DNA from: Nanobdellota archaeon
GTDB taxonomy: Archaea > Nanobdellota > Nanobdellia > Pacearchaeales > GW2011-AR1
Length of the DNA: 64,000 nt
NCBI GenBank assembly: GCA_022561055.1
Contig: JADFRY010000002.1
Location: forward strand, 54,064-118,063
Reading direction: 5' to 3'
In this document: piece by piece, positions 1-59,606 of the stretch
How the letters are laid out: each line of letters begins with the position of its first letter
Position numbering within the stretch: the first letter of the stretch is position 1
Position numbers and translations under genes: made by a program
The notes under the pieces: model-generated
The model's database searches: none
Seen by the model: only the letters and a program-made list of their open reading frames with translations
What the model was told of the DNA's origin: nothing

Positions 1-2
1 CA

Positions 3-1732: not shown

Positions 1733-1762
1733 GATGATAAATTTGTATTTAGGTTTATATTT

Positions 1763-2644: not shown

Positions 2645-2682
2645 AAAAAACCAACCTATAATCAGTTTATAAATATTATGGT

Positions 2683-3216: not shown

Positions 3217-3283
3217 GTTTTATAGAATAGAAAGAGAGTTTTATAAAGGTTAATTTTAAAAACCCTCAAAAAGTAGTTTTCTT

Positions 3284-5077: not shown

Positions 5078-5093
5078 AGAATAGCGTGTAAAA

Positions 5094-5423
5094 ATGAATG
5101 ATCTTTATATTATTGCGAATGATTTTAGCAATCAAGTAGATATTGGGTATGATATTAGAGTTATTATTTATACTCTTGCGTTGTTTTCAGTCCCTATTGT
5201 TTCTTATCTTGGATTTAAAGCATATAAAGAGGAAAAAAGAAAAAATCTAAAACATCTTAAATTTCTGGCAGATAGTGCAATTGAGAGGGTTAGACGAAAT
5301 TATGTTGTAGATGGAGATATTAGAATTATCGACAGAGCTATACGCAAAAGAGTTATAGATGAAGAGGAATATAATCTAGCTCTCATGGAACAAAGAGGAA
5401 AAAGGCTTTTGTTTGATTATTAA
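5094..5423 (+). CDS. small membrane-anchored hypothetical protein
   Basis: ORF with one hydrophobic segment (IIYTLALFSVPIVSYLGF) and a charged tail. It is followed by a hairpin plus T-run. Confidence 0.4.
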   Translation: MNDLYIIANDFSNQVDIGYDIRVIIYTLALFSVPIVSYLGFKAYKEEKRKNLKHLKFLADSAIERVRRNYVVDGDIRIIDRAIRKRVIDEEEYNLALMEQRGKRLLFDY

Positions 5424-5434
5424 ATCTTTTGTTT

Positions 5435-5457
5435 AAAAATCCTGTAAGGATTTTTTT
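5435..5457 (+). terminator. hairpin plus oligo-T after 5094..5423
   Basis: aaaaatcc / tgtaa / ggattttt stem-loop running into a T7 tract. Confidence 0.45.
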
Positions 5458-5557
5458 GTTTAAACCCTGATAAGCTCAAGAACCAGTATGAATGATAAGG
5501 ATCGAAACATCAAATTCTAGATAATTTGTTACCTTTCTTAAATTACTACATTAGAAA

Positions 5558-5569
5558 GATTTATATATT
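5558..5569 (+). promoter_or_regulatory. TATA box (gatttatatatt)
   Basis: The centre of the tttatata 8-mer lies 25.5 nt upstream of ATG 5589. The same spacing recurs at many genes in this window. Confidence 0.5.
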
Positions 5570-5588
5570 TGTCAAGGCATGATTTTTC

Positions 5589-6032
5589 ATGGTAAAATAT
5601 GACCCTTTATCTGGTTATTCTACGGATGCTATTGAAGCAGAACTTGATAGAAGAAAATCAGTATATGCAGAATCACCGCGCGTTTTGGGTGATGCTGCGA
5701 AGGTAATTCTTTCTTATAATGATTCTAGGTCAGCAAAAAGCTTACACGAGCTAGCTGAACATTTAGAAAGGCTTTCTGGAGCAGAAAATATTGGAGCCCT
5801 TATAAAAAAAGTAAATAATAGGCTTGATCAATTTGAATTGACTAGTAACAGGGCTGGAAGTGGCAAAGGAAGGTCTAGGAAAAAACAATACGATGATCCT
5901 TTCGGTGAACTTGTTAAGAGAATGGAAAAAAGCCCTAACGCAGACCCGGGTAAAATCCTTGATAGAATGAGAATAACTGGAAGACAAAGAGGAGGTATTC
6001 TATCTTCTTATGCTAGATATTACTCAAAATAG
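5589..6032 (+). CDS. hypothetical protein
   Basis: ORF with a well-placed TATA box. No family recognised. Confidence 0.4.
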   Translation: MVKYDPLSGYSTDAIEAELDRRKSVYAESPRVLGDAAKVILSYNDSRSAKSLHELAEHLERLSGAENIGALIKKVNNRLDQFELTSNRAGSGKGRSRKKQYDDPFGELVKRMEKSPNADPGKILDRMRITGRQRGGILSSYARYYSK

Positions 6033-6074
6033 ACTTTCCTAAACTTTAAAAATCTAGATTGGAATAACTTATTC

Positions 6075-6338
6075 TCATATATCTCCATTCTCTTCTTTCT
6101 TTTTATCTTCGTAAGGGGAAACTTGCATTCTGTAAAATTCCTGTTTAATACACTCTAACAATCCGACAGCTTTGTTGTAATTGTGATAAGACGGTTTATA
6201 AGTTTCCTTGAGCAACTTGCTTATGAGATAGTTCAGCTCGCCTTCAAGTTTGTCCTCTGGAATGTCCTTTATCAATTCTTTTATTTTAGACAAGGTTTCA
6301 TCCCATTTTCCTCTCTCTTCCTTTTGTATGTAAGGCAT
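6075..6338 (-). CDS. small conserved-looking hypothetical protein
   Basis: 87-aa ORF with GELNYLISKLL ... EFYRMQVSPYEDKKKEENGD. The motif pattern resembles small proteins seen in phage/prokaryote genomes. Function unknown. Confidence 0.4.
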   Translation of the reverse strand: MPYIQKEERGKWDETLSKIKELIKDIPEDKLEGELNYLISKLLKETYKPSYHNYNKAVGLLECIKQEFYRMQVSPYEDKKKEENGDI

Positions 6339-6389
6339 TAATATTATCAGAAATATAATGTTATAAAGTTTACTATATCAAAAGCTGAA

Positions 6390-6400
6390 GATTTAAAAAG
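6390..6400 (+). promoter_or_regulatory. TATA box (gatttaaaaag)
   Basis: The 8-mer centre lies 25.5 nt upstream of ATG 6421. Confidence 0.5.
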
Positions 6401-6420
6401 CTAATTTTCTAAAAGAACTT

Positions 6421-6780
6421 ATGGTTAAAGGAATAGTCGTTCAATTCAGACGTGGTAGACACAGAATTCATGAAAAGCATTATTTACTAGACTTAAATCT
6501 GGGAAGTCGGGATGACGCCAAGAAAATGGCTGGAAAAGAAGTTGAATGGAAAAGCCCTTCAGGCAAAATAATTAAAGGAAAGATTTCAGACGCTCATGGT
6601 AACAATGGTTTAGTTAGAGCAATTTTTGAAAAGGGTTTGCCAGGACAAGCAATGACAACTGAGATTGAGGTTAAAGGAGAAACTCCAAAGCCGGTAGAGA
6701 AAACAGAAAAGCCAGCTGAGAAGAAAGATGAAAAGAAAGAAGTTAAGGAGAAGAAAGATGAGACTAGCAACAAAGAGTGA
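6421..6780 (+). CDS. rpl35ae: ribosomal protein L35Ae with Lys/Glu-rich C-terminal extension
   Basis: VEWKSPSGKIIKGKISDAHGNNGLVRAIFEKGLPGQAM matches the archaeal L35Ae core. About 40 extra K/E-rich residues follow. Confidence 0.75.
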   Translation: MVKGIVVQFRRGRHRIHEKHYLLDLNLGSRDDAKKMAGKEVEWKSPSGKIIKGKISDAHGNNGLVRAIFEKGLPGQAMTTEIEVKGETPKPVEKTEKPAEKKDEKKEVKEKKDETSNKE

Positions 6781-7057
6781 AATGACATCCCAGGGCGCCC
6801 TAGCAATCCTTGTTAATTTGGATAGATATGTTGGAGGAGAACTAGTTCGAAGTGATGAAATTTCATTTTGGAGACTTGATAGAAATAAGGTATATTCCAT
6901 GGTGGGATTATTAGACGATGGGATTGGTGGCAGACGCATCATTATACATGGTTATGGGAAACCAAACGAGATTGGTGGCCTTGTCAAGGAAGCTAAAGTA
7001 ATTGGATGCAGTATACATGTTCAAGATCGTGGTTATGATAGGAGAAGAAATAGATAA
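6758..7057 (+). CDS. hypothetical protein in r-protein operon (alternative start 6728)
   Basis: The ORF overlaps the L35Ae tail and ends in a TAATG overlap with the next ORF. Confidence 0.4.
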   Translation: MRLATKSEMTSQGALAILVNLDRYVGGELVRSDEISFWRLDRNKVYSMVGLLDDGIGGRRIIIHGYGKPNEIGGLVKEAKVIGCSIHVQDRGYDRRRNR

Positions 7058-7347
7058 TGGAAACGGCAACACGGACTGAAAGAATAACTGTTTATTTCTC
7101 GGCAAGTTTTAAGTCCTGTTCTGATTTAAAACTAATAGAATTTACTAAAATACGTAAGGATGTAGATTACAATATCAGAATTATTAACTCTGATGACTCA
7201 ACAGTTGTTAGTCGTAATGGTCTAGATAGAGATGAGTTAAAAGGGATAGTTTCATCTTGGAGACTAACACCAGAAATGAGAGGTGCACAGTTTTATGTTG
7301 ATCATCCGGATAATAATGTATCTGCAAAACGTGAGGGAAGGTTATAA
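7057..7347 (+). CDS. hypothetical protein in r-protein operon
   Basis: Bounded on both sides by 1-nt TAATG stop/start overlaps (7055-7059 and 7345-7349). Confidence 0.4.
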   Translation: METATRTERITVYFSASFKSCSDLKLIEFTKIRKDVDYNIRIINSDDSTVVSRNGLDRDELKGIVSSWRLTPEMRGAQFYVDHPDNNVSAKREGRL

Positions 7348-7886
7348 TGGCATCATTAAGAAAGGCATCAGCATATTCTAAGAAGAAGGCCAGGCCTTAT
7401 ACTCGGAAGTCCAAGAAGAAGTCAAAGTCTTACATTAAAGTTATCCCGCAAAATAAAATTGTCAAATATAATTTAGGAAATATAAAATCTTATCAAGAAG
7501 GAAAATTCAAGTATGTTGTTAGATTTATCGCGAATGAGAAAGTGCAGATTAGGGACAACGCTATTGAGGCATGCAGACAACTTTTAAACAAAACACTCGA
7601 AAGAAAAATTCCAAATCAATATTATTTTGGAATTAAAGTCTTTCCTCATCATATTTTAAGAAACAATAAAACTGCTGCCGGCGCAGGAGCTGACAGACTT
7701 TCTAGCGGAATGAAACATTCTTTCGGAATTATTGAAGGCCGCGCCGCTATAGTTAAACCAGGCAAAGAAATCTTTATTGTTGCTTGTGAAACAGAACAAG
7801 GCGCTCGTATTGCGCGACAAGCCATGACAATGATAAAGTCTAAGGTTCCATGTAAAAGCATAATAAGATTCCAAAAAATTCCTTAA
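7347..7886 (+). CDS. rpl10e: ribosomal protein L10e (uL16)
   Basis: MASLRKASAYSKKKARPYTRKS... and GADRLSSGMKHSFG are typical of archaeal L10e/L16. Confidence 0.85.
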   Translation: MASLRKASAYSKKKARPYTRKSKKKSKSYIKVIPQNKIVKYNLGNIKSYQEGKFKYVVRFIANEKVQIRDNAIEACRQLLNKTLERKIPNQYYFGIKVFPHHILRNNKTAAGAGADRLSSGMKHSFGIIEGRAAIVKPGKEIFIVACETEQGARIARQAMTMIKSKVPCKSIIRFQKIP

Positions 7887-7933
7887 AAGGAATTTTTGGG
7901 CGTTCAAGAATTCTAGTTAAAGAATTCTTGACG
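7871..7933. repeat. two adjacent hairpin modules, related to modules of the 17.3 kb and 61.6 kb elements
   Basis: ccaaaaaattcc/ttaaaa/ggaatttttgg is followed by cgttcaagaattct/agttaa/agaattcttgacg. The site lies between convergent genes. Confidence 0.55.
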
Positions 7934-7979
7934 TGAGAAAGTTGAGTGATTCTTCTTTTTTAGTGTTAATATAACAACC

Positions 7980-8483
7980 TTATTGTTCTTCTAAAACTCT
8001 AACGCCATTATCTAGTGTGTTTCTTTCGAAATATTCAGCATCTGTGTTTATGCCTGTAAAAAGTTTGCCGGAAGGGTGTGGTTTTTCCATAACAGCGTTA
8101 AGTGTATTAGCATACTCTCCTCCACCTAATGGAATTTCTCTAAAAATTACAACTCTCACGTCATCATCATATCCAGTCCTGTGAGAGTCTGCTCCTCTAG
8201 CTTCTCTAACAGCTTCTCTTCTGCTTCTTTCTTCAAGTTGGTCTGAAGCTCCTCTAATTCTGTCCTGGAGTTCTTCTTTCTTTAGGTAATTCCTTAAAGT
8301 TGATTTGTGGTATATTCTTCCAAGAGCCCTATTCACATTAGCACCGAACTCTTTATTTCCATATCTAAGAGCTGCTTCTGTTAAAAGCCTTGGATGTCTC
8401 TCAGCCTCTTCATAAATAAGGCCCCCGCTAGCAGAATCATATACTTTTCTTGCTGCTCTTTCAATTAATCCTTCTGATACCAT
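7980..8483 (-). CDS. hypothetical protein
   Basis: 167-aa ORF, visibly more GC-rich than its surroundings. No family recognised. Confidence 0.4.
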   Translation of the reverse strand: MVSEGLIERAARKVYDSASGGLIYEEAERHPRLLTEAALRYGNKEFGANVNRALGRIYHKSTLRNYLKKEELQDRIRGASDQLEERSRREAVREARGADSHRTGYDDDVRVVIFREIPLGGGEYANTLNAVMEKPHPSGKLFTGINTDAEYFERNTLDNGVRVLEEQ

Positions 8484-8607
8484 TTTGTTAATCTAATAAA
8501 TAATTTTAAGGTTATAAACCTTTCTATTGTTATTATTTCTTAGTAGTTACATAATCGAAGGGTTTAAATACCCTCTGAGTAAATTATTACTATATAGTGA
8601 TAATAAA

Positions 8608-8922
8608 ATGAGATTCGGAAGATGCATGTCGAAGGAGGAAGCAAAGCGAATGAAGAGAACTGGAGTATTAGGTGACCCCAGCGGTGATCTTGTTCCGGTT
8701 TTTGATAGCCCTGGGTCTGTAGAACAGAGAATTTATGGTATGGGTAAAGAGGCTCTAAGAAACATGTTCCGTGGTTTAGGAGTAAGAGATCCTTATTCTG
8801 TCGCCTTTTTTGAAACTGGCGAACCAGCTGTTGGCCCTATACCTCAAAGGGCCGGTGGTTTAAGGGAATATAAGTTGGAACCAGGAACACCTATAAGGGT
8901 TTGTTCAACTAAAAGAGTTTAA
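8608..8922 (+). CDS. hypothetical protein (start uncertain: 8527/8608/8626)
   Basis: ORF. MSKEEAKRMKRTGVLGD...VPVF...YSVAFFE...GGLREYKLEPGTPIRV loosely resembles small toxin-type C-terminal domains. This is unverified. Confidence 0.35.
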   Translation: MRFGRCMSKEEAKRMKRTGVLGDPSGDLVPVFDSPGSVEQRIYGMGKEALRNMFRGLGVRDPYSVAFFETGEPAVGPIPQRAGGLREYKLEPGTPIRVCSTKRV

Positions 8923-9002
8923 ATTTATTTTTATACCAAGATTGCTAATTACTCATAGAACAATAGAACAATATTTATTAACTCTATCCTCTTTTTTATT
9001 TC

Positions 9003-10547
9003 ATGGCAGAAAAAGAGGTTCAAAAAAAGACAAACAATAATGGTTTTGTCAAATGGTTTTCTGAGTTAAGCAGCAAAGATGTTGCAATTGCTGGAAACAA
9101 AGGTGTTATTCTAGCAGAAATGTATAATAACAATTTTCCTGTGCCGCCGGGATTTGTCATAACATCGAACGCTTACAAATATTTTATTGAAAAAAATTCT
9201 CTCAATAAAACAATCTCTGAGATTTTGAATAGCATAGATATCAAAGACAAAAATGCTTTAGAGAAAAATGCTAAAAAGATAAGAGAGATGATAATAAACG
9301 CCAACATCCAAGATGAAATGCGAGAAGAGATTCTCGAGTCTTATGAGGTTTTAGACGTAGATAAGAAAAAGTTTGTTAGTGCCAGTTCCAGAGCATTAGA
9401 TATTTTAAAAGCCTCCCATGAGCAACCATTTGTCGCAGTCAGAAGTTCTGCAACAATATTGGATAATGGAAAGACTCTCTTAAATGTAAAAGGAAATGAA
9501 AACTTAATTGAAAATATCAAGAAATGTTTTGCTTCTTTATTCACAGAGGAAGCAATCTATGAACGTGAAAAAAAAGAAATTCAACATGACGAATCTGAGA
9601 TGGCTGTCGTCGTGCAATGCATGGTTGACTCTGGTAAATCAGGAGTTATTTTCTCTAAAAACCCTTCAAAAGACGATGGCAATATCATAATAAAAGCTGT
9701 TTTTGGTTTAGGTCACGGAATTATTTCTGAAAGAATTTCTCCAGACTATTATGTTATTAATCCTAAAGAAGATTTCAAAATTATTGAAAGAAAGGTTTCT
9801 GATAAAAAATTTGCTTTAGCAAGAAATTCTTCAGGAAAGATTGGGGCTATTGAATTGGATGATGATTTAAGAAAGAAAAATGTTTTATCTGGCTACCAAA
9901 TTAAAATGCTTGCTCAGCTTGCGGCAGAAATTGACGAACATTTTGGAGAACCACAAGACATACAGTTTGCAATAAAAGAAAATGAGATTTATATTATTAA
10001 TTCGCGACCGATAGAAATTAAGTACGAAGAGGATGAAGAAATAAAAGAAGAAACAGAAAAAAAACCTGAAGAGAAAGAAGCGGAAGTGTCGAAGACTGAG
10101 AAGGAGGAAAAAAAGACGGCTCCTATTGTAACTGCGCCTTCTATCCCAGAAATGCAACCCGGCCAACTAGAAGACATAAACGAAGAAGAATTAATTTTAA
10201 AAGCCTTAGAAGAGGATGAGCAATCAGGAGATGTTCCAATACTTTTTTCTATGTCTGAAATAGAGTCTTTTTTTAAAAAAGATGAGTATCTGCCTGGATT
10301 AGAGAAAAAGGACGACGTTCCACCTTTGAATGAAGCAATACCTGTCAGCTCTGAAGATTTTCAGGATGAGGAAGAAGAGGAAATACTGGAAATTAAAAAA
10401 GATGAAATTGATGAAGAGCCAGAAGCGAATCCAGAATCAGGAGGACAACCAGACGAAATAGATGAGGTAGATGAAATGCTCGGCGATGCTGAAGTTAATG
10501 GCGATAGTCACGAAAAAGAAGAAGATGAAGTCTTAGATGTTTTTTAA
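9003..10547 (+). CDS. PEP/pyruvate-binding (PPDK_N, ATP-grasp) domain protein with about 180-aa acidic tail
   Basis: GNKGVILAEMYNNNFPVPPGFVITSNAYKYF is the N-terminal signature of PEP synthase/PPDK. No phospho-His or TIM-barrel domains follow. The C-terminus is E/D-rich. Confidence 0.65.
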   Translation: MAEKEVQKKTNNNGFVKWFSELSSKDVAIAGNKGVILAEMYNNNFPVPPGFVITSNAYKYFIEKNSLNKTISEILNSIDIKDKNALEKNAKKIREMIINANIQDEMREEILESYEVLDVDKKKFVSASSRALDILKASHEQPFVAVRSSATILDNGKTLLNVKGNENLIENIKKCFASLFTEEAIYEREKKEIQHDESEMAVVVQCMVDSGKSGVIFSKNPSKDDGNIIIKAVFGLGHGIISERISPDYYVINPKEDFKIIERKVSDKKFALARNSSGKIGAIELDDDLRKKNVLSGYQIKMLAQLAAEIDEHFGEPQDIQFAIKENEIYIINSRPIEIKYEEDEEIKEETEKKPEEKEAEVSKTEKEEKKTAPIVTAPSIPEMQPGQLEDINEEELILKALEEDEQSGDVPILFSMSEIESFFKKDEYLPGLEKKDDVPPLNEAIPVSSEDFQDEEEEEILEIKKDEIDEEPEANPESGGQPDEIDEVDEMLGDAEVNGDSHEKEEDEVLDVF

Positions 10548-11182
10548 TTAGGTCCCCTAGCATAATTTTCTTGATGATCAACTTGTTGTTCTAAAGTCTG
10601 CTGATAATTTGTATTTTCTCTATTAGGAGTTAAAGCATATATCCCAGCAGTGAGACCTATAGCTCCTGCCGCTAATAGACTTGCTAATCCTTTTTTCACC
10701 TTAGAATTTCTTTCTCTTACTAATTCAGGAACTCTTTGGGATTTTTTCAATCCAGTTAAATCACGAAAAGTATCTATAGTATATCCTGCAGGTCCTCCTA
10801 TAACTGCTCCCAAGCCAATTCCTACAAGAGTGCCAATAACTATTTCTTTTGTATCCCTCGCTCCTGCAATATAATAAAATATTGGTAAAGCTACTAATTG
10901 AAGTGTTGCGGCATATGCTGCATCAATGGCGTGCTGAATTTTTCCTTTTGTCTCATCTGTAATACGAAATAATTTTCTCAATCCATCTCTACCTCTTGCA
11001 ATTAACCCTCCAAATCCTGCGTAAGCTAAACCAGCATTAATTAATCTTGCATTTAGAGAAACATCATCAGACATTCCTACAACAAAAGTTTCTAAAGTGG
11101 CTGAAATTGGAGTGGATATTGATAGCAAAGCTGTTGAATCCACAAAATTATATTTTAACCAATTTGGAGCTTTAACTTTCAT
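10544..11182 (-). CDS. AlaE-like (L-alanine exporter family) membrane protein
   Basis: VDSTALLS...ETFVVGMSDDVSLNARL...RGRD and later ...GAVIGGPAGYTIDTFRDL align with the E. coli AlaE pattern (DT..E.F..GMS...S..RL...RD). Confidence 0.55.
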   Translation of the reverse strand: MKVKAPNWLKYNFVDSTALLSISTPISATLETFVVGMSDDVSLNARLINAGLAYAGFGGLIARGRDGLRKLFRITDETKGKIQHAIDAAYAATLQLVALPIFYYIAGARDTKEIVIGTLVGIGLGAVIGGPAGYTIDTFRDLTGLKKSQRVPELVRERNSKVKKGLASLLAAGAIGLTAGIYALTPNRENTNYQQTLEQQVDHQENYARGPN

Positions 11183-11295
11183 GCCTCTTCTTATAATTTG
11201 GTCTTTTTAAATCTTCCCACTATGTTACCCCTAACTAGTTTATACAAAACAGGAAGGTTTATAAATGACTGTTTTCTAGGCTAAGTAAGATAAAA

Positions 11296-12156
11296 ATGGC
11301 AGAAAATGATTACGAAAAAGTAGGAAGAGAGTATAAAATAGCTCAAGAGATAGATGATTATCTTAGCCAAAGGTCTCAGGATGATAGAACTGAAATAAAA
11401 GAAAGAGCTAAAGGAAAATTAAGAAAGATAGGTCATGATTATGCAGTCGCAAAGGGATTTATAGATGGGGATAGAGTTGGTCCCCGAGATATTGAAGAGA
11501 GAAACTTACTAGAGTTTCTTAAAGGAGCACAAAGAGAAACACTGACAAATTCTGCTAACAGACTTTATGATAATCTTGAAAGTATTGTTGATGAGCTTCC
11601 AGAGAGCAAGCTTGAAGACTTAATTAAGAGTGATGATGTTCTCAAGTTTACAGAAGGTAATGAGAGAAAGGTTCTTGCTAGTTATAGATTCTATAAAGAT
11701 ATTGAAAGTTTTGCTAGAAGATATCAAGATAGTGGAGAGATAAGAGATGAGAAAGAGAGAAAGCTTGTAGAGCAAGCTTCTAAGGCTGGTGAGGGAATAT
11801 ATCTTGAAGAGCAAAGAAAGAAAGCAATGGATGCTGAAATTGAGAGACAAAAGGAAGAAGGTTATAGTGTTGTAGACGAAGATCTTACAAATCTTGCTGG
11901 AAATTTGATGGTTATTTCAGTTAAATCTGGATATTCTGCAAGCCCAGAGGAAAGAATAAAAGAATACACTGTCAAGGCCCTTAGTGAAACAGCAGGAGAG
12001 CTTAAGAAAGCTTATGAAAATCTAACCGAAGAGTCTGGAATAGATGCCAAGGGTGCTGTAAAAGCAACCCTTAAGAGACTAGGTAGGAAGGGAAGTTCTA
12101 CAAATGATTTCAAAACTATGGCAAAACTTATTTATGATTTACCTAGTGGTGAGTAA
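11296..12156 (+). CDS. hypothetical protein (charged, helical)
   Basis: 286-aa ORF with TATA (ggtttataaatg, 11257..11268) upstream. No family recognised. Confidence 0.4.
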   Translation: MAENDYEKVGREYKIAQEIDDYLSQRSQDDRTEIKERAKGKLRKIGHDYAVAKGFIDGDRVGPRDIEERNLLEFLKGAQRETLTNSANRLYDNLESIVDELPESKLEDLIKSDDVLKFTEGNERKVLASYRFYKDIESFARRYQDSGEIRDEKERKLVEQASKAGEGIYLEEQRKKAMDAEIERQKEEGYSVVDEDLTNLAGNLMVISVKSGYSASPEERIKEYTVKALSETAGELKKAYENLTEESGIDAKGAVKATLKRLGRKGSSTNDFKTMAKLIYDLPSGE

Positions 12157-48208: not shown

Positions 48209-48472
48209 TTATGTGTTTTCTTCACCTTTTCCATAAACCTCTCTACGATGCCCGACATAATGAATAACAATTCCTTTAGGATGATGTGAATACATAACTC
48301 TATACTTTTTAAATCGAAAACTAAAAAATCCTTTTAATCTTCCCTTGAGTTGTTTGCCTTTAATTTTGCTTCTGAGCCTTTTCAATTCTTTTTTAATTTG
48401 TCTTTGATTACTTATGTGAAGCCCATGCAGGGTTCTTTTACCTTCTTCTGTAAATTGTATTGAAAAGTCCAT
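48209..48472 (-). CDS. RelE/ParE-family toxin
   Basis: LKG...FSFRFKKYRVMYSHHPKGIVIHYVGHRREVY follows the RelE/ParE C-terminal pattern (R.G.YR..Y......I..VGHR.E.Y). Confidence 0.7.
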   Translation of the reverse strand: MDFSIQFTEEGKRTLHGLHISNQRQIKKELKRLRSKIKGKQLKGRLKGFFSFRFKKYRVMYSHHPKGIVIHYVGHRREVYGKGEENT

Positions 48473-48714
48473 TAGACCTCATCAATAGAATAAAGTTTTC
48501 CTTTTTTCATATCTTTGATACTTTTTGCTAAGCTAGCCATAACGTCTGGATCCGAAAGTATCTCAATTGTTTCATAGAGTGAATCGTCTTGCATGTCTGT
48601 GTCGCCGGAAAGAATTCTCATGAGAACATCATTATACGATTCTCGTGGATGAGACTTGACTCTATCAAGTTTGGCTTTTACATTTCTATCCAAGGTTATT
48701 GTTGATATATTCAT
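48472..48714 (-). CDS. putative antitoxin
   Basis: 80-aa acidic protein immediately upstream of the toxin, with a 1-nt TAATG overlap at 48470..48474. Confidence 0.55.
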   Translation of the reverse strand: MNISTITLDRNVKAKLDRVKSHPRESYNDVLMRILSGDTDMQDDSLYETIEILSDPDVMASLAKSIKDMKKGKLYSIDEV

Positions 48715-49262: not shown

Positions 49263-50480
49263 TTAAGCAGCTTTATCAAATAGTGCTAAGCCATCTCCAA
49301 TTAATTTTTCTAAGTCTTTGCTTTGCCCATGTTTTTTCTCTAAGCTTGCTCTTATTTCAGACCGTAACTGGGGATTAAATCCTCCTTTTGTTAAGATTTC
49401 TAAGATGCCAAGTGGTGCGAGCCAATCGTCTTCATGTTCCTTTTCTAATTTTTGCCATGATTCTCGAAGCCAATAGGTATTTCTTTTCTGTTCTCTGCAT
49501 TCCCTCATAGCCTTATATATTCTATTGAGTCTTTTTTGCTTTTCAGTTGGTCTAAATTTATGAGTCCGTTCTTCTGGTTTTATTATACTTTCGATGCCCA
49601 CATCACTTGTACCAGACATTGTCCCTCTAAATTTCTCTAAAATGTCAAGAATATTATCTAAACTTTCAGCTTCATAGAGTGTTTCTTGTTGTATGGTAAT
49701 ATTATACTGCGCCTCTGCTGTCTCAAGAGAAAGAGGACGTATAGTTCTATTAAGATAATTTCTTCCTTCGTCTATTGAGGAGATTAGAGCAGCTCCCCAA
49801 ATTCTTGATTCTCTATTATATTTTACAAGTCCAAACTCTACTGTAAACCAGTGTAAAGCAGAAAGTCTTCGCGCATCAGAAGCAGCATCATAGGCAGCTT
49901 TATTTGCTAATTTCCACCTTTCATTTGCTTCTTTTTTCTGTTCTTCGGTTGTTACAAAGTCTTCTTCTAAAATAGATAAATGGCGTGTAGCTTCATAATA
50001 CTCTTGATCTTCTGGAGCCGATACTGCCTTTATTCCAAGTTCACCAAATAATTGTAAAATTCTCCTAACTTCTAGATTAGCAAGCATTGTTGTATGCCCC
50101 AGACCTTCATGAACTATATCTGGAGAAGGAGTATATCCTATATTCGCAGGTATTCTCATATCAGTAGAAATTGGTGTTACTCCTCTATATTGAAGAGCCA
50201 TAAAAGCTCTGGGAGGAATAAAACCATTCACACCTATGGCGCCAAAGCTGACTTGACTTAATTTATCGTCTATGTGCGCTATTCTAGGTATTGTGTCTAT
50301 AGGGATATCTAATAATTCTATACTCTCTAGATATGATGGATGAGCATGTTCTAGGTAAAAAGGATGACTAACTTGTCTTATGTAGCGCCATGCTTCATGT
50401 TGCGCTGCTGTATATTTGGGTTGCACTTCTTTAAACTGTGCTAAGGGTGGTGGAAGATTTTTTACATGTTCGCTAACCAT
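49263..50480 (-). CDS. aromatic amino acid hydroxylase-like (phenylalanine-4-hydroxylase family) protein with insertion and C-terminal extension
   Basis: YTAAQHEAWRYI, PDIVHEGLGHTTML (two iron His retained), WFTVEFGL (iron Glu retained), GAALISS. Confidence 0.6.
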   Translation of the reverse strand: MVSEHVKNLPPPLAQFKEVQPKYTAAQHEAWRYIRQVSHPFYLEHAHPSYLESIELLDIPIDTIPRIAHIDDKLSQVSFGAIGVNGFIPPRAFMALQYRGVTPISTDMRIPANIGYTPSPDIVHEGLGHTTMLANLEVRRILQLFGELGIKAVSAPEDQEYYEATRHLSILEEDFVTTEEQKKEANERWKLANKAAYDAASDARRLSALHWFTVEFGLVKYNRESRIWGAALISSIDEGRNYLNRTIRPLSLETAEAQYNITIQQETLYEAESLDNILDILEKFRGTMSGTSDVGIESIIKPEERTHKFRPTEKQKRLNRIYKAMRECREQKRNTYWLRESWQKLEKEHEDDWLAPLGILEILTKGGFNPQLRSEIRASLEKKHGQSKDLEKLIGDGLALFDKAA

Positions 50481-51887: not shown

Positions 51888-52094
51888 ATGCACATCCTAC
51901 AGCCAAAACACATTAAATTGAAGCCCGAAGAGGTCAAAGCTTTAGTTAAAAAATATAATATTTCTTTATCGCAATTGCCCAAGATAAAATCAACAGACGC
52001 AGGAGTTCCTGAAAACTGTGAATCGGGAGATGTTCTTAAAATTGAGAGAAAGCAAGAGGAAAAAATAAGAGCATGTTACAAAGTTATTGTATGA
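51888..52094 (+). CDS. rpoH: RNA polymerase subunit H (Rpo5)
   Basis: HILQPKHIKLKPEEVKALVKKYNISLSQLPKI...GDVLKIER matches the archaeal RpoH/Rpb5 C-domain. It sits directly before rpoB. Confidence 0.85.
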   Translation: MHILQPKHIKLKPEEVKALVKKYNISLSQLPKIKSTDAGVPENCESGDVLKIERKQEEKIRACYKVIV

Positions 52095-52115: not shown

Positions 52116-55100
52116 ATGAAAGAAAATCACATTTTAGTCCAGAAATATTTAGAACAGCACTCATTAGTTGAATCTAATATTCTTAGTTTTAATGATTTCA
52201 TAAATAAAAGAATGCAACAAATTATCAATGAAATTAATGATGGACTTGAAAATGATGAGATGGAAATAAAATTTGGGAAGATTAGAATTAACAAACCAGA
52301 TGTTATAGAGGCTGATGGCAGTGTTAACTTTATTACGCCTACCGAAGCCAGATTACGAAGCCTGACTTATTCTGCACCTATTTTTGTAGAACTAACAGTA
52401 AAATATAGCGAGCAATCGGACAGTGCGGAAGTTGAAATAGGAAGGATTCCAATAATTGTTAGAAGCGATGTTTGCAACACAAGTAAAATGAGTAAGGAAG
52501 AATTGCGAGAAAATTATCTGGACCCGCTTGACCCTGGCGGATATTTTATAATTAATGGAAATGAAAGAATTATGGTAATGACAGAAGACCTTGCGCCGAA
52601 TCAGCCTTTCATAGAAGAGGGTAGGCAAGGTCTGACATTAAGACTTTTTTCCCAAAGAGGCCCTTACAGAATTCCAACTACTATTTCTGAAACAAATGAG
52701 GGCATTCTAGAATTGACATTCAGCAGGTTAAGAAATATTCCTGCAATTCCTTTGGTAAAAGCATTAGGAATAATAAAAGAATCTGATATTGCAAAACATA
52801 TTGGAAAAGAAGACGATTGTGTTATTGTCAATTTGTATGAATTTGCGAACATTCAAAATACAGAAGATGCGCTTTTATATCTTGCTGAGAAATCCAGCAT
52901 TCAAGGAACAAAAAAAGAAATTCTTGACAGAGTAAAACAGAGAATTGACGCTTATTTACTGCCTCATATTGGTTTAGATAAAAGTGCAAGAGTCGAGAAG
53001 GCATTGACCATATGTAAATTATTGAAACAATATTTGAATGCTAAAGATAATAAAAAAATCAGAACAGACAAAGACCATTACGCAAACAAAAGAATAAAAC
53101 TTTCAGGAGATTTGTTAGCTGATTTATTCAGAGTTAACATGAACATTCTTGTCAAAGATATACAATATTCTTTGCAGAAAATTGTTAAGAGAAAGAAATT
53201 TTATTCTATCAAAACAATTGCTAAATCTACTTTGTTTACTCATCGAGTTGAGAGCGCGATTGCTACAGGAAGTTGGATTGGCGAAAGGACAGGGGTTACT
53301 CAAAATATGGACAAGACTAATTATTTAGCTATTCTTTCCCAATTGCAGAGGATTTCGAGTATGCTGCCAGGAGAGCAAGAAAACTTCATGGCAAGAACTT
53401 TACATCCAACTCATTACGGAAGATTCTGTCCGACAGAGACACCTGAAGGAACTGAAATAGGCTTGAGGAAAAATCTGGCTCTTTTAGCAAGGATTTCAAC
53501 TTCTGTTGATTTTGATGAGCAAAAAGTTTTAAAGAAATTTGCAGAACTTGGTCTTGATAATGATAAAGAAAAAGATGTTTTCTTTAACGGGCGATTCATT
53601 GGGATGGTTGAAAATCCTGAAGAATTTGCTAAGAAAGTCAGAGAAGCGAGAAGAAAGGGAGAACTTCCTGTTGAATTAAGTGTTAGAAGCAAAAATGAAG
53701 CAGATGCTGTGATAATCTTGACTGAAGTTGGCAGAGTATTAAGACCTTTGATAGTTATTGAAAATGGTGTGAGCAAATTAAAAGATGAGCATCTTGTATT
53801 GTTAGAGCAAGATAAAATGTCATGGCAAGACTTGGTAAAAGAAGGAGTTATTGAATATCTCGATGCTTCTGAGGAAGAAGATGCTTTGGTTGCCTTAAAG
53901 CAAAATGAATTGAGTGATAAAAATACTCACCTTGAAATTGATTCTATTGATATTTTTGGTTTGATAACCTCATTAGTGCCTTATGGAAACCATGACCAAT
54001 CGTCTAGGCTGAATCGTGGGAGCAAAACTTTGAAACAAGCTCTTGGAATTTATGCTGCAAATTATTTGACGCGGCTTGATACAGATGTTTCAATATTACA
54101 TTATCCACAAAATCCTATTGTAAAAAGCTTTGTTTATGACACTCTTAATATTTATCCTGCAGGACAGAATTTGATTGTGGCAATTATGCCTTATGAAGGT
54201 TATAATGTGGAAGATGCTATTGTCCTGAGTAAGGCAAGTGTCGAAAGAGGAATGGGAAGAAGTACTTATTTTAGACCTTACAAGGCTACTGAACTGCATT
54301 ATGCTGGTGGGTTAAAAGATGAGATAACAATACCTGACAAAGATGTTTCTGGTTATAGGACAGAAGAGTCTTATAGATTTTTAGAAGATGACGGAATAGC
54401 ATACCCTGAAGCGAAAATAGAATCTGGCGAGGTTGTTATAGGCAGAGTAACTCCGCCAAAGTTCTTATCTGAAGCAAAGGACATTAGTATCCAGGCAAAG
54501 AAAGAAGGAAGCATGGCTATTAGGCAGGAAGAAAAAGGAACTGTCGACGCTGTTTTTGTTACTGCAGATAGAGAAGGAAATAAGATTGCTCAAGTAAGAA
54601 CAAGAGATTTAAGGATTCCAGAGCCAGGTGATAAATTTTCAACGCCGCATGGACAAAAAGGGGTTGTTGGACTTCTTGCAGATTCCAAAGATATTCCATT
54701 TACATCTAGAGGTATTAAACCTGATTTGATTTTTAATCCACATGGAATTCCGAGCAGATTGACTGTTGGGTATATGATTGAATTACTTGCAGGCAAAGTC
54801 GGGGCTATTACAGGAAAGTTTATTGACGGGACGCCATTTTCAGGACAAAAAGTTGAAGAACTTGAAGCTCAGCTGAGAGAGTTGGGTTTCAGCTACGATG
54901 GAAAAGAAACAATGTATGATGGCGTAACAGGAAAGAAAATGGATGTTAAAATTTATATTGGGAATATGTATTATTTAAAACTGAAATATATGGTAAGTAA
55001 TAGAATACATGCAAGAGCGTCTGGTAAAGTCACGTTATTGACTAGGCAACCTGTTGAAGGTAGAGCGAGGGGCGGTGCATTGCGTCTTGGAGAAATGGAG

Positions 55101-55358
55101 CAACAGGCTTTGGTTGCACACGGGGCATCATTATTATTAAAAGAAAGATATGACTCTGACAAAACAATAATTTATATCTGCTCAAAATGTGGAAACATTG
55201 CTATCAAAGACACACTTAGAAACAAAACCTATTGCGCATTTTGCGGAAGTAATGAAGTTGAATCTATTGAAGTTTCATATGCCTTTAAATTATTGATAGA
55301 AGAATTACTTGGATTACATATTTTAACAACTTTTGAGTTGAAGAATAAATATGAGTAG
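52116..55358 (+). CDS. rpoB: RNA polymerase subunit B (unsplit)
   Basis: Full set of Rpb2-type blocks (GYFIINGNERI, HPTHYGRFCPTETPEG, GDKFSTPHGQKG, RLGEMEQ) and C-terminal zinc ribbon CSKCG...CAFCG. Confidence 0.95.
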   Translation: MKENHILVQKYLEQHSLVESNILSFNDFINKRMQQIINEINDGLENDEMEIKFGKIRINKPDVIEADGSVNFITPTEARLRSLTYSAPIFVELTVKYSEQSDSAEVEIGRIPIIVRSDVCNTSKMSKEELRENYLDPLDPGGYFIINGNERIMVMTEDLAPNQPFIEEGRQGLTLRLFSQRGPYRIPTTISETNEGILELTFSRLRNIPAIPLVKALGIIKESDIAKHIGKEDDCVIVNLYEFANIQNTEDALLYLAEKSSIQGTKKEILDRVKQRIDAYLLPHIGLDKSARVEKALTICKLLKQYLNAKDNKKIRTDKDHYANKRIKLSGDLLADLFRVNMNILVKDIQYSLQKIVKRKKFYSIKTIAKSTLFTHRVESAIATGSWIGERTGVTQNMDKTNYLAILSQLQRISSMLPGEQENFMARTLHPTHYGRFCPTETPEGTEIGLRKNLALLARISTSVDFDEQKVLKKFAELGLDNDKEKDVFFNGRFIGMVENPEEFAKKVREARRKGELPVELSVRSKNEADAVIILTEVGRVLRPLIVIENGVSKLKDEHLVLLEQDKMSWQDLVKEGVIEYLDASEEEDALVALKQNELSDKNTHLEIDSIDIFGLITSLVPYGNHDQSSRLNRGSKTLKQALGIYAANYLTRLDTDVSILHYPQNPIVKSFVYDTLNIYPAGQNLIVAIMPYEGYNVEDAIVLSKASVERGMGRSTYFRPYKATELHYAGGLKDEITIPDKDVSGYRTEESYRFLEDDGIAYPEAKIESGEVVIGRVTPPKFLSEAKDISIQAKKEGSMAIRQEEKGTVDAVFVTADREGNKIAQVRTRDLRIPEPGDKFSTPHGQKGVVGLLADSKDIPFTSRGIKPDLIFNPHGIPSRLTVGYMIELLAGKVGAITGKFIDGTPFSGQKVEELEAQLRELGFSYDGKETMYDGVTGKKMDVKIYIGNMYYLKLKYMVSNRIHARASGKVTLLTRQPVEGRARGGALRLGEMEQQALVAHGASLLLKERYDSDKTIIYICSKCGNIAIKDTLRNKTYCAFCGSNEVESIEVSYAFKLLIEELLGLHILTTFELKNKYE

Positions 55359-55366
55359 GTAAGACT

Positions 55367-55666
55367 ATGAGAGAAGAAGAAATACTGGAAAGGGCAGGGA
55401 GAGTAATTAGAGAGTATGTGAAAGGGCACCAACGAGAGCTTAGAAGTAAATATGGAAATGATCAATTTTATATATTTATTACAGAAGAATATGAAATTAT
55501 AGATCATGGTAAAGATCTTCGTACTGTGCATGATAGAGGTTATAGAAGAGCAAAGAGGGGTACTCAACCTATGATAATTCATGGTACTGTTGATGACCTT
55601 ATAAATCCAGGAAAAAATCCAAGAAGAAGAGAAAGCCTGTTTTCAATAGAAGGAGTAATGAAATAA
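55367..55666 (+). CDS. hypothetical basic 99-aa protein inserted between rpoB and rpoA
   Basis: The ORF starts 8 nt after the rpoB stop. No family recognised. Confidence 0.45.
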   Translation: MREEEILERAGRVIREYVKGHQRELRSKYGNDQFYIFITEEYEIIDHGKDLRTVHDRGYRRAKRGTQPMIIHGTVDDLINPGKNPRRRESLFSIEGVMK

Positions 55667-55667
55667 A

Positions 55668-55865
55668 ATGGAAAGAAATTTAGAAGTATTGGAGTTTGAA
55701 TTGAATGATAAACAAATAGATGAGATGATATCAAAATTAAATGAATTAAAAGAAAGTCAAGAGCATATTCATTATGATTTACCAAATAAACAAATGAATG
55801 TTATTGGAGATAACATAGAAATTATGGAAATACTTATTCACCACGAAAAGGATGAGTTAAAATAA
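55668..55865 (+). CDS. hypothetical acidic 65-aa protein inserted between rpoB and rpoA
   Basis: The ORF starts 1 nt after the preceding stop and ends 3 nt before the rpoA ATG. Confidence 0.4.
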   Translation: MERNLEVLEFELNDKQIDEMISKLNELKESQEHIHYDLPNKQMNVIGDNIEIMEILIHHEKDELK

Positions 55866-55868
55866 AAA

Positions 55869-58800
55869 ATGCCAGAAATAATAAAAAAACAAGTTAAAGC
55901 TTTAAAATTTAGTTTGATTAGTCCGGCGCAGATAAAAAAAATTAGTGCTGCCAAGGTTGTTACTCCTGAGCTCTATGATATTGACGGTTTCCCTGTTGAT
56001 GGAGGTATTATGGACTTGCGTTTAGGAGCTATTGACCCTGGAGTCAGATGTAGAACCTGCGGCGGGAGATTAAAAGAATGTCTAGGACATGTTGGAAGTA
56101 TTGAACTTGCTCGGCCAGTTATTCATATAAAATATGTTCCTTTGATTGAATTATTTTTGAGAAGTTTTTGTCATAAGTGTGGAAAACTTATGTTGGAAGA
56201 AGAAAAACAGAAAAAATTTGGTCCTGCTGAGAGCGCTAAAAAGGCTAGAGATAAAAAAAGATGTCCATATTGTAATGAAGTCCAAGAGAAAATTAAACTT
56301 GAGAAGCCAAATTTATTCTCCATGGGGAAAAAAAGAATATTCCCTAATGAAATAAGAGAGATGCTTGTTACAATTCCTGATGAGGAAGCTAGGAAAATTG
56401 GAGTAAATCCTAAAACATGCAGACCAGAGTGGGCAATTCTTTCTCTGTTGTTAGTACCGAGTGTTATTGTAAGACCTTCAATTACTTTAGAAACAGGAGA
56501 AAGGAGCGAAGATGATCTAACCCATAAGTTATCTGATATTATTAGAGCTAATCAAAGATTGTGGGAAAATTTGAATGCTGGAGCGCCGGAAGTAATTATT
56601 GAAGACTTATGGGATTTATTACAGTATCATATTACAACATTTTTTGATAATAATATTTCTAGAATACCACCAGCAAGACACAGGTCAGGACAGCCATTGA
56701 AAACAATAACTGAAAGAATTAAAGGTAAAGAAGGGAGGATTAGAAAGAACTTAGCTGGAAAAAGAGTTAACTTTTCTGGCAGAACAGTCGTTTCTCCAGA
56801 GCCTGCTCTCAACATTAATGAAGTTGGAGTTCCATTAGAAGTTGCAAAAATTATTACTGTTGCTGAGGCAGTAACAACTACAAATTTAGAATTTATTAAA
56901 AAGATTATTATAAATGGACGTGAAAAACATCCTGGAGCCAACTATGTTATTAGACCGGATGGAAAGAGAAAGAGAATTACCGAAGATCTAAAAGAGGAGC
57001 TTTGTGATGAAATCCAGCCAGGATATAAAGTTGAAAGACATTTACGGGACGGCGACGTTGTTCTTTTCAATAGACATCCATCTTTGCACAAACAAAGTCT
57101 TATGGCTCATTATGTAAGAGTCCTACCAGATAGAACATTTAAAATACATCCAACTGCTGCTTTCCCTTATAACGCGGATTTTGATGGAGATGAAGTCAAT
57201 ATACACTCTCCTCAGACAGAAGAGGCAAGGTCTGAAGCAAAAATTCTTTTAGATATTAAAAATAATATTATTTCTTCTAAGAATAATATAAATCTTGTTG
57301 GATGTATTGCAGATGCTATAACCGGCTCTTACATTTTAGGAAAAGAAAAATTTGATAAGCCAGACGCAGATCAGTTACTGTTTTCTGCAGGAGTCATCAA
57401 TAGTTTGAAAGGTAAAGAAATCTCTGGTATAAATCTGTTTAGTCAAATATTACCTAAAGAAGCTAATATAAAAATGCCTTCGGAAATCTTAAGTAAAAAT
57501 ACATTAGGGTCGGAAGATGGCGAGATGGTTAAGATATTGGACAAAAATTGCGGAAGAGAAGCAACACTTGAATCTATAAGAAGAGCATTCTCCCTCGGGA
57601 CAATTTACTTATCTAGAAGAGGATATACGCTTTCGTTGAGAGATTTGGATGTTTCAGAAAAAGTCAAGAAAATAACTAGGGAAGTTATAGAAGAAGCTGA
57701 GAAAAAAACTAAAGAAATAATAAAAGATTCAGAAATTGGAAAATTAGAGATAATTCCAGGAAAAAGTATTGAAGAGTCAAGAGAAGTCAAGATTTCTAAA
57801 GTATTGAATGAGATAAGGTCAAATGTTGGTCAGATTGTTCAGAGTCATTTTCCAAAAGAAGGAAACGTTAGTAAAATGATTGCTGCCGGAGGAGGCGGAA
57901 GTATATTAAACATTACTCAAATTGGTTGTTGTGTTGGACAGCAAATTTTATGGAATGAACGAATTAGTTTTGGCTACACAGGAAGAACTCTTTCTTTTTT
58001 TGAGAAGGGAGATATAAAAGCGGAATCACGCGGGTTTATAAAATCGTCTTTTTTCGATGGTTTGAAGCCCAGTGAGTTTTTCTTCGGAGCCATTACAGGA
58101 AGAGATGCCCTCATGGACACTGCTTTAAGGACACCTAAATCAGGATATCTTTACAGGAGATTAGTTAGCGCCTTACAAGATTTGAAATTAGAGTATGATG
58201 AAACAGTAAGAGATGCTTCTGGCAACATAATCCAGTTCTTATACGGTGGTGATGGATTGGATGTATCCGCTTTGCATTTAAATAAAAAAGTTTGTCCCGG
58301 CGAAGCTGTTGGAGTTATCACAGCCCAATCATTTGGAGAAGCTTCAACACAAATGGTCTTAAATGTATTCCACTCTGCAGGTGTTGCTGAAATGCAGATT
58401 ACACTCGGATTGCCAAGGTTAATTGAGATTTTTGATGCAAGAAAACAACCATCTACTCCATCAATGGAAATTTATCTTGACAGAGAACATAATAATGAAA
58501 ATGATGCAAGAGTTATTGCAGAAAAAATTAAAGAAGTAAAAGTAGAAGGGATTGCTTCTGAAATAAAGATTGATTTTTCTGGAAAGAAGATTGAGATAGA
58601 GTTGGACAATGCTGCCTTAAAAACAGTTCACGTCGGGGTGCAAAAAATAGTTGACAGACTAAATGAAAAAGGATTTAAAGTTAAAAAGAGAAACATAAAG
58701 ATTAGTTTAAATGTTTTGGATATGGACTTTAAATCTATTTACAAATTAAAAGGAAAACTAAGAAAAACAATTATATCTGGAATTAAGAATATCAATCAAG

Positions 58801-59282
58801 TTATTGTTGCTAAGAGAGAAAAAGAGTTTGTTATTTTAACTTCGGGAAGTAATTTGCGAGATATTATGGAAATAAAGGGGGTCAATAAAGATAGAGTGGT
58901 TACGAATAATATTCATGAAGTTGCAGATGTTCTCGGTATTGAGGCGGCAAGACAAGCGATTGTAAATGAAGTAAAAAAAGTTCTTGAAACTCAAGGTTTA
59001 GATATTAATTTTAGACATCTTGATTTGATTGCCGATGCAATGACGTCTTCTGGAGTTGTTAGAGGGGTTACACGAATGGGAATTATATCTCATAAATCGA
59101 GTATTTTTGCACGGGCTGCATTCGAAACTCCTGATAAACAATTTATTAATGCAACTATACAAGGAAAAAAAGATGAGTTGGCTTCAGTGATTGAAAATAT
59201 TATACTTAATCAACCGGTTCCCGTCGGTACAGGCTTGCCCGGCTTGCTTGTTAAAGTCACAGGTCCTTTGGTTAGGAAGTGA
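55869..59282 (+). CDS. rpoA: RNA polymerase subunit A, single polypeptide covering A' and A'' regions
   Basis: One ORF contains the N-terminal zinc motif (CRTCGG...CLGH), NADFDGDE, the bridge helix (GRDALMDTALRTPKSGY) and the trigger-loop block normally at the A'' N-terminus (PGEAVGVITAQSFGEASTQMVLNVFHSAGV). Confidence 0.95.
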   Translation: MPEIIKKQVKALKFSLISPAQIKKISAAKVVTPELYDIDGFPVDGGIMDLRLGAIDPGVRCRTCGGRLKECLGHVGSIELARPVIHIKYVPLIELFLRSFCHKCGKLMLEEEKQKKFGPAESAKKARDKKRCPYCNEVQEKIKLEKPNLFSMGKKRIFPNEIREMLVTIPDEEARKIGVNPKTCRPEWAILSLLLVPSVIVRPSITLETGERSEDDLTHKLSDIIRANQRLWENLNAGAPEVIIEDLWDLLQYHITTFFDNNISRIPPARHRSGQPLKTITERIKGKEGRIRKNLAGKRVNFSGRTVVSPEPALNINEVGVPLEVAKIITVAEAVTTTNLEFIKKIIINGREKHPGANYVIRPDGKRKRITEDLKEELCDEIQPGYKVERHLRDGDVVLFNRHPSLHKQSLMAHYVRVLPDRTFKIHPTAAFPYNADFDGDEVNIHSPQTEEARSEAKILLDIKNNIISSKNNINLVGCIADAITGSYILGKEKFDKPDADQLLFSAGVINSLKGKEISGINLFSQILPKEANIKMPSEILSKNTLGSEDGEMVKILDKNCGREATLESIRRAFSLGTIYLSRRGYTLSLRDLDVSEKVKKITREVIEEAEKKTKEIIKDSEIGKLEIIPGKSIEESREVKISKVLNEIRSNVGQIVQSHFPKEGNVSKMIAAGGGGSILNITQIGCCVGQQILWNERISFGYTGRTLSFFEKGDIKAESRGFIKSSFFDGLKPSEFFFGAITGRDALMDTALRTPKSGYLYRRLVSALQDLKLEYDETVRDASGNIIQFLYGGDGLDVSALHLNKKVCPGEAVGVITAQSFGEASTQMVLNVFHSAGVAEMQITLGLPRLIEIFDARKQPSTPSMEIYLDREHNNENDARVIAEKIKEVKVEGIASEIKIDFSGKKIEIELDNAALKTVHVGVQKIVDRLNEKGFKVKKRNIKISLNVLDMDFKSIYKLKGKLRKTIISGIKNINQVIVAKREKEFVILTSGSNLRDIMEIKGVNKDRVVTNNIHEVADVLGIEAARQAIVNEVKKVLETQGLDINFRHLDLIADAMTSSGVVRGVTRMGIISHKSSIFARAAFETPDKQFINATIQGKKDELASVIENIILNQPVPVGTGLPGLLVKVTGPLVRK

Positions 59283-59366: not shown

Positions 59367-59606
59367 ATGGTGCATGAACTAAAGCAACATATTTTGGCTA
59401 GAAAAGTTTTTTTTGGAATAAAACAGTCCTTAAAAAATTCTAAAAATCTAAATAAGGCATTATTGTCTTCTGATTGTAGAGAAGAAATTATGGATTTATT
59501 GGAAAAAAATAAAATAGATATAGAAATAATGGACTTTTCTAAACAAGAGTTAGCTGATAAATTAGAGCTAGATTTTAAATGTGAAGTTTTTGGTTTGAGA
59601 AAATAA
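59367..59606 (+). CDS. rpl30e: ribosomal protein L30e (short form)
   Basis: GIKQSLKNSKNLNKALLSSDCREEI...ELADKLELDFKCEVFGL follows the L30e/L7Ae-fold pattern. The position after rpoA is the conserved archaeal order. Confidence 0.65.
   Translation: MVHELKQHILARKVFFGIKQSLKNSKNLNKALLSSDCREEIMDLLEKNKIDIEIMDFSKQELADKLELDFKCEVFGLRK

Follow-up and report, generated by a model that had tools for sequence, protein, structure and literature searches.

The operons of RNA polymerase (RNAP) and gyrase are among the most conserved gene arrangements. The 64,000-nucleotide stretch of DPANN archaeal DNA analysed here (the window) raises the question of what two small genes, ORF99 and ORF65, represent at the junction between rpoB and rpoA, and whether they belong together. 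NCBI lists the products as IIA87_01855 and IIA87_01860, both hypothetical proteins from the MAG of a 'Nanoarchaeota archaeon'. Sequence comparisons show ORF99 and ORF65 to be two independent small genes, of the families designated F99 and F65, residing in 'inter-subunit junctions' of essential operons, and not one unit.

Organization of the rpoB-rpoA junction

The genes of the RNAP operon and the insert are listed in Table 1. The order rpoB-ORF99-ORF65-rpoA on a common strand, with spacers of 8, 1 and 3 nt, had been reported in the initial annotation and matches the ORF list and the sequence exactly; the insert amounts to 510 nt in total. The same annotation assumed an rpoA'/rpoA'' pair, which is not found, rpoA being one gene with all five Rpb1 domains; in the relative L104 it is likewise unsplit (1144 aa). 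Downstream of rpoA follow, in order, an ORF at the L30e position, a NusA-like KH protein, S12, S7 and EF-2. The first of these, a 79-aa ORF (59367-59606) between rpoA and the NusA-like KH gene, occupies the usual place of rpl30e, has no Pfam match and possibly represents an L30e that is reduced or has diverged. On the other side of the operon, a 405-aa Biopterin_H (aromatic amino-acid hydroxylase) homologue is encoded at 49263-50480 (-) beside a PEBP-family gene, which is unusual for a reduced DPANN genome.

Table 1. Features of the RNAP operon around the insert (window positions)
Feature	Position	Strand	Description
rpoH (Rpo5 C-terminal domain)	51888..52094	+	first gene of the RNAP operon; Pfam RNA_pol_Rpb5_C, E 8e-16
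rpoB	52116..55358	+	unsplit, 1080 aa, stop TAG; Rpb2 domains 1-7; C-terminus complete (...ELKNKYE*), last 350 aa 74-84% identical to 80 related genomes
Spacer GTAAGACT	55359..55366	+	8 nt from rpoB stop to ORF99 start; AGGT motif spans the stop codon
ORF99	55367..55666	+	F99 family; DUF5678-like core, N-terminal helical hairpin, disordered basic tail
ORF65	55668..55865	+	acidic F65 family, whose usual site is the gyrB-gyrA junction
rpoA	55869..59282	+	single unsplit gene, 1137 aa; Rpb1 domains 1-5 in one product

The C-terminus of RpoB and the N-terminus of RpoA are both normal, so that ORF99 and ORF65 constitute additional material and not fragments of the polymerase. An assembly artefact, which had been named as a way to refute the locus, is unlikely, since two separate assemblies (ERZ23499870 and ERZ27267505) share this junction and differ at a single position in 14,762 nt. 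Both ORFs were claimed to be genuine and tightly coupled members of the RNAP operon, and this holds: homologues of both occur elsewhere, which distinguishes them from chance ORFs, and the spacers are minimal. Inspection of the insert revealed no T-run of five or more, and purine-rich AGGT or GGAG motifs lie upstream of its start codons; these features fit co-transcription and coupled translation. The stop codon of ORF65 (TAA), one AAA codon and the ATG of rpoA (55863-55871) share one reading frame, and read-through would give an ORF65-RpoA fusion; the frame match is probably coincidental, because the homologues at the gyrase junction overlap gyrA out of frame. The G+C content falls to 23-25% over ORF65 (55600-55900) versus 32-42% in rpoB and rpoA, a dip compatible with a K/E/N/I-rich composition or with a foreign origin. 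Within 54900-56400 an Rfam scan found no RNA family and a repeat search no credible flanking repeats; a 24-nt inverted match bracketing the insert (75%) is at chance level for AT-rich DNA and was discarded.

For comparison, the 3' region of rpoB was retrieved from GTDB species representatives with 74-84% identity to the window in the C-terminus of RpoB (80 loci); the gap between rpoB and rpoA was measurable in 79 of them, each from a different species. The following arrangements were found: (i) rpoB and rpoA adjacent or overlapping, with a gap of at most 12 nt, in 51 species; (ii) a short spacer of 27-125 nt in 5 species; (iii) an insert of 180-989 nt in 23 species, 10 with F99 and 13 with sequences unrelated to F99. 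Where no insert is present, rpoA begins at most 12 nt from the rpoB stop or overlaps it (e.g. TAAAATG, ATGA). Where an insert is present, the small ORF in most cases either uses the coupled start or begins a few nucleotides beyond the end of rpoB, and its stop usually re-forms a tight stop-start junction with rpoA, so that the coupling of rpoA is largely kept. The window, with spacers of 8, 1 and 3 nt, conforms to this pattern.

The 13 long inserts unrelated to F99 indicate that the junction is a permissive site with F99 as one dominant, site-specific tenant. Among the other tenants, L098 (4055-4393) encodes a bona fide tRNA_bind-domain protein (E 1.4e-15). A two-member family with the pattern DGYY...RAKADGL is found at the junction of L033 (4046-4384) and after the F99 gene of the metagenome contig L105 (932-1189), and a Cys-rich two-member family at the junctions of L084 (4283-4492) and L093 (4116-4421); the remainder are membrane-type ORFs and singletons. 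Because the same junction holds such unrelated genes, including tRNA-binding-domain and membrane proteins, position alone is no proof of a role in RNAP.

Two families with different home sites

A word-indexed protein search with ORF99 returned only ORF99 itself, and a complete HMMER search over 1.84 billion representative proteins added two weak relatives, P0024 and P0025 (E ~1e-4). An HMM built from the three sequences matched 8 junction ORFs (E 1.9e-16 to 2.3e-3) and nothing elsewhere among 4095 ORFs of the relatives' loci; iteration gained L037, L076 and a remnant in L043. By BLASTP single linkage the F99 cluster comprises 14 sequences (13 genes and the L043 remnant), and a metagenome scan with a five-sequence F99 alignment detected only two loci. 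In all 14 F99-bearing loci, namely the window, 10 of the 79 species representatives, L104, L105 and L106, the gene lies in the rpoB-rpoA junction or directly upstream of rpoA. L104, the home of P0025, shows the order rpoB-99 aa-rpoA; in L106, the home of P0024, the gene ends 2 nt before rpoA; in L105 it overlaps the end of rpoB. ORF99 thus matches the family profile and has the coupled, same-strand position between rpoB and rpoA.

The F99 proteins are 74-108 aa long, with a pairwise identity of 11-47%, and retain the core motif LR.KYG ... GVID.D.D ... T.D..NP. Of the selection check asked for both families, F99 offers pN < pS. The AlphaFold model of ORF99 (pLDDT 80) consists of a helical hairpin, a beta hairpin, a helix, a strand, a short helix and a disordered tail; a Foldseek search with it against PDB and BFVD yielded nothing at E <= 0.001. 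The window protein has no match to DUF5678 (PF18929) at E <= 10 and does not reach the gathering cut-off of that model. Six F99 relatives match it below threshold (13-17 bits versus a gathering value of 23.2; E 0.0065-0.08), which makes a remote relationship between F99 and DUF5678 plausible without establishing membership. ORF99 had been described as basic, and it is mildly so (pI 9.3, K+R 20, D+E 17). On these comparisons, F99 is a fast-evolving, undescribed family confined to the rpoB-rpoA junction in Pace-, Woese- and Nanoarchaeota, present there in 10 of 79 species (~13%, about one in eight).

In a neighbour-joining tree of RpoB and RpoA the presence of F99 is scattered. Sisters with and without the gene occur (L034 versus L039; L075 versus L070 and L071), as do sister pairs in which both carry it (L058 and L104; L043 and L074). 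The identity of F99 proteins shows no correlation with the distance between hosts (Spearman coefficient -0.06); F99 is near saturation, so loss and transfer are not separable by this value. The junction of L043 (4059-4500) contains a divergent full-length F99 gene and, starting 2 nt behind it, a 37-codon remnant, which matches the C-terminal half of the F99 protein of its sister L074 (46% identity, E 1e-9) and shows no match to its own neighbour. A full gene next to a sister-type remnant indicates in situ replacement of one F99 allele by another. Among the residues and indels of RpoB and RpoA, none tracks F99 presence beyond the multiple-testing expectation (minimum p 0.0017 in 1113 tests).

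A different picture emerges for ORF65. Among 5.8 billion proteins a word-indexed search detected three relatives, and a subsequent profile search extended the F65 family to 22 members. ORF65 matches the F65 profile with E 6.8e-30 and contains the motif LEFELNDKQID..LI.KL.ELK......LLIHHE; the residues L12, I17, L24, L27, K28 and H59 are invariant in the family. The pI lies between 4.05 and 6.1 in 20 of the 22 members, with long D/E tails in the most acidic subfamily. The earlier description of ORF65 as acidic and helical-looking stands for the charge (pI 4.6, K+R 7, D+E 17) and only partly for the helix: AlphaFold (pLDDT 81) predicts a short strand, a single helix (residues 14-30) that packs against beta strands, and a beta meander, a beta-alpha-beta arrangement. 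No match was obtained in PDB, by fold or by sequence profile, in Pfam or in NCBIfam. Where dS is unsaturated, dN/dS is 0.16 (L001 versus L007) and 0.07 (L017 versus L018), by which F65 is evidently under purifying selection, as the same selection check had anticipated.

In 7 of its 11 known contexts the F65 gene occupies the gyrase junction: in 5 it is enclosed by gyrB and gyrA, and in L017 and L018 it directly precedes gyrA, with a gyrB-type C-terminus further upstream or lost at the contig end. The four exceptions are the window, L004 (a 610-bp contig), L013-L015, where a stand-alone copy is located in a Woesearchaeota island, and L002. According to passages of PMC9348778, gyrase is present in most Woese- and Pacearchaeota; the 64-kb window contains no gyrase genes, so ORF65 is away from the usual location of its family. 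Since close and distant, very acidic subfamilies are both found at gyrB-gyrA, this junction is the ancestral home of F65. The window is the sole case of rpoB-rpoA placement among the 11 contexts, and ORF65 has relocated from a gyrase junction to its place beside ORF99. The synteny foreseen for both genes is thereby found for the ORF99 family, patchily, and not for that of ORF65.

The gyrB-gyrA site is a second crowded inter-subunit junction. In L016, F65 is the sole tenant of the junction. Downstream of F65 lies a Zn-ribbon protein in L001 (10263-10472) and an ACT_7 protein in L007-L012 (200 aa, one lineage). Upstream of F65, L019-L023 have a 91-aa Zn-ribbon protein (L019/L021 3724-3999), and L018 has two Zn-ribbon proteins (578-733, 755-1021) and a membrane protein. 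The Zn-ribbon proteins at gyrB-gyrA in DPANN contigs measure 51-91 aa and show a weak match to an Elf1-like Zn ribbon. Inteins were also observed, in gyrB of L010 (1529-3967) and, with a LAGLIDADG endonuclease, in gyrA of L017 (302-4102), and gyrase operons are thus also targets of true homing elements.

Accessory proteins or passengers of the operon

The initial annotation regarded the pair as a two-gene cassette, possibly a basic/acidic selfish module of toxin-antitoxin type, and recognised no family for either protein. Only the last statement is borne out. Neither the two ORFs nor the two family alignments produced a match above threshold in Pfam, NCBIfam, PADLOC and PHROGs, the only recurrent signal being the sub-threshold DUF5678 matches of F99, and PDB sequence-profile searches with both ORFs were negative. 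As to the cassette, none of the 13 other F99 loci carries a relative of ORF65, and no ORF65 relative has an F99 neighbour. An addiction module of a basic toxin and an acidic antitoxin is suggested by the small size, tight coupling and opposite charges of the pair in the window, and by the F65 homologue P0005, which adjoins a GNAT gene within a toxin-antitoxin-like array (L002). It is scarcely credible in view of the 13 F99 loci without F65 and about 10 other F65 contexts without F99, the lack of any toxin, antitoxin or defence match in Pfam, NCBIfam and PADLOC, and the unrelated F99 and F65 profiles (hhalign probability 0.2%). The charge argument itself fails, because F99 members span pI 4.5-9.3 and a basic charge is no family trait. 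A type II toxin-antitoxin module was accordingly rejected, neither a co-occurring pair nor similarity to a known family being present. A real toxin-antitoxin pair is located 7 kb upstream, at 48209-48714 (-), where the genes of a ParE/RelE-like toxin (87 aa) and a VapB/DUF7557-like antitoxin (80 aa) overlap at stop and start. The L002 array (1-12128, GCA_964407005.1) extends over 12 kb on one strand, with overlapping GNAT, NTP_transf_2 (MNT-like), 139-aa and NYN genes, and resembles stacked toxin-antitoxin or defence modules; P0005 lies immediately upstream of one GNAT gene.

Other identities were set aside as well. A free-standing homing endonuclease was rejected: the gene is optional, lies between conserved genes and is patchy (10 of 79 species, scattered on the tree), as for genes of the homing type, but no member has a nuclease domain in Pfam or PHROG (HNH, GIY-YIG, LAGLIDADG or PD-(D/E)xK), no fold match exists and the proteins are very small. 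Mobile-element cargo was likewise dismissed, as scans of viral contigs, PHROGs and plasmids (tblastn) detected no F99 or F65 relatives, and neither flanking repeats nor an RNA element were found. A divergent form of a known small RNAP subunit or factor (Rpo13, Rpo8, Rpo6, Spt4, Elf1-like), or an essential new core subunit, is highly unlikely. The location inside the RNAP operon speaks for it, as does the existence of lineage-restricted archaeal subunits such as Rpo13 and Rpo8 (PMC3479171). Against it, Foldseek detected no similarity at E <= 0.001 to PDB chains, RNAP structures included, nor did sequence searches; the best ORF65 match to Rpb2 has E 1.3 and an rmsd of 14 A; and F99, missing from 69 of 79 related species, is not a core subunit. 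The previously suggested lineage-specific RNAP accessory subunit or regulator therefore survives in part: the conserved junction of F99 fits a link to RNAP, whereas a core or known subunit does not agree with the distribution and the PDB searches.

The tentatively preferred explanation, held at somewhat short of even confidence, is that ORF99 and ORF65 are dispensable, translationally coupled, lineage-specific accessory proteins of the enzymes encoded by the flanking genes. An insert usually starts at an ATG coupled to the upstream stop and ends in a new stop-start junction, by which the host operon would transcribe the insert and the coupling of rpoA is largely kept. The F99 and F65 proteins would be made alongside the large subunits and would most likely bind the enzymes or the nascent subunits, modulating them or assisting their assembly. 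RNAP would be the target of F99, and F65 would serve as an acidic partner to the 'A' subunit whose gene follows. New alleles would arrive by recombination through the conserved flanks. The constant junction position of F99, its conserved core and pN < pS, the gyrase site of F65 in 7 of 11 contexts and its dN/dS of 0.07-0.16 agree with this, as do the stop-start coupling (TAAAATG or ATGA) retained on both sides of inserts and the allele replacement in L043. Against it stand the 69 of 79 species without F99 at the site and the 51 of 79 without any insert, sister genomes that often differ, the 4 of 11 F65 contexts outside gyrase operons (the window included), and the failure of residues and indels in RpoB and RpoA to co-vary with F99.

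The main alternative, a substantial though lesser possibility, is that the two genes are hitch-hikers in a permissive 'landing pad', with functions unrelated to RNAP and gyrase or with benefit only to themselves. The stop-start junction of two conserved essential genes would tolerate small promoterless cistrons spread by homologous recombination via the flanks, and the tenants would be protected from deletion because only precise excision leaves rpoA coupled. The variety of the inserts in 23 of 79 species (beyond F99, two two-member families, many singletons, a tRNA_bind protein and membrane-type ORFs) suits this alternative, as do the scatter of F99 on the RpoB and RpoA tree with a Spearman value that is uninformative at F99 saturation, the L043 replacement, the shift of F65 from the gyrase to the RNAP junction, the equally crowded gyrB-gyrA junction with its Zn-ribbon and ACT_7 genes, and the lack of a co-varying polymerase feature. 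It is opposed by the clear purifying selection on F65 and the conserved core of F99, which indicate that both proteins do something. Further points against it are the lack of nuclease, transposase or integrase domains and of flanking repeats, of relatives in viral contigs, PHROGs or plasmids, and of near-identical F99 alleles between species (maximum 47% identity), so that recent transfer is not demonstrated. Synteny alone does not decide between accessory protein and hitch-hiker, because a gene in an unbroken operon holds its place whatever its function. A bolder extension of the accessory explanation, which is improbable, would see in F99 (RNAP) and F65 (gyrase) a class of small, fast-evolving, exchangeable 'inter-subunit junction proteins' of the DPANN Pace-, Woese- and Nanoarchaeota, delivered co-translationally to the nascent enzyme and tuning or protecting it, e.g. 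against host or viral inhibitors. If this were true, supercoiling and transcription would be linked in their control through F65, which would serve the two junctions alike.

Significance and relation to known systems

Literature searches returned no description of the F99 or F65 families, nor of genes at the rpoB-rpoA or gyrB-gyrA junctions; the 12 of 31 passages of PMC9348778 covered by a keyword search mention none between the subunit genes. F99 and F65 are two undescribed families that vary known themes, namely small proteins associated with the polymerase in particular lineages, and optional genes flanked by conserved ones. The recurrence of family-specific small genes exactly between subunit genes in one large uncultured archaeal clade is an unexpected and reproducible comparative pattern. 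Proteins that do bind the enzymes would count as new, lineage-specific factors of RNAP and gyrase in organisms whose genomes are minimal. Without such binding, the junctions would be a clean natural case of essential operons that shelter and exchange passenger genes, which matters for annotation and for the use of rpoB and rpoA as phylogenetic markers.

By sequence, the closest known family is DUF5678, for which the literature searched gave no function. The six matching F99 members align with model positions 1-41 of 49, always at ELR.KYG..IAV...GVID.D.D. In contrast to DUF5678, F99 has an additional N-terminal helical hairpin and a C-terminal T.D..NP segment, and the window protein itself has no match.

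In arrangement, both families resemble free-standing homing endonuclease genes: a small optional gene separates two conserved subunit genes of a single essential enzyme, has a start coupled to the stop before it, occurs in some relatives only, and undergoes allele replacement. The differences relate to the lack of an HNH, GIY-YIG, LAGLIDADG or other nuclease, the length of 65-108 aa, and the cellular rather than phage host; homing is not demonstrated here.

Bacterial delta, epsilon and omega are small RNAP subunits. Like these, and like the archaeal Rpo13 and Rpo8 (PMC3479171), F99 proteins are small and non-universal; some of the known subunits are dispensable, and they modulate or help to assemble the large subunits, which by analogy is the model proposed for F99. 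There is no similarity of sequence or fold to them, F99 is far patchier (~13% of the species of its own clade), and its association with RNAP is putative.

Among small gyrase-binding regulators, YacG is a zinc-finger protein, and acidic DNA-mimic proteins exist. F65 has no homology to either, and in the window it is found in the RNAP operon. An interaction of F65 with gyrase may be supposed purely by analogy to these proteins, which F65 resembles in being small and strongly acidic, usually in the gyrase operon and often beside a Zn-ribbon protein.
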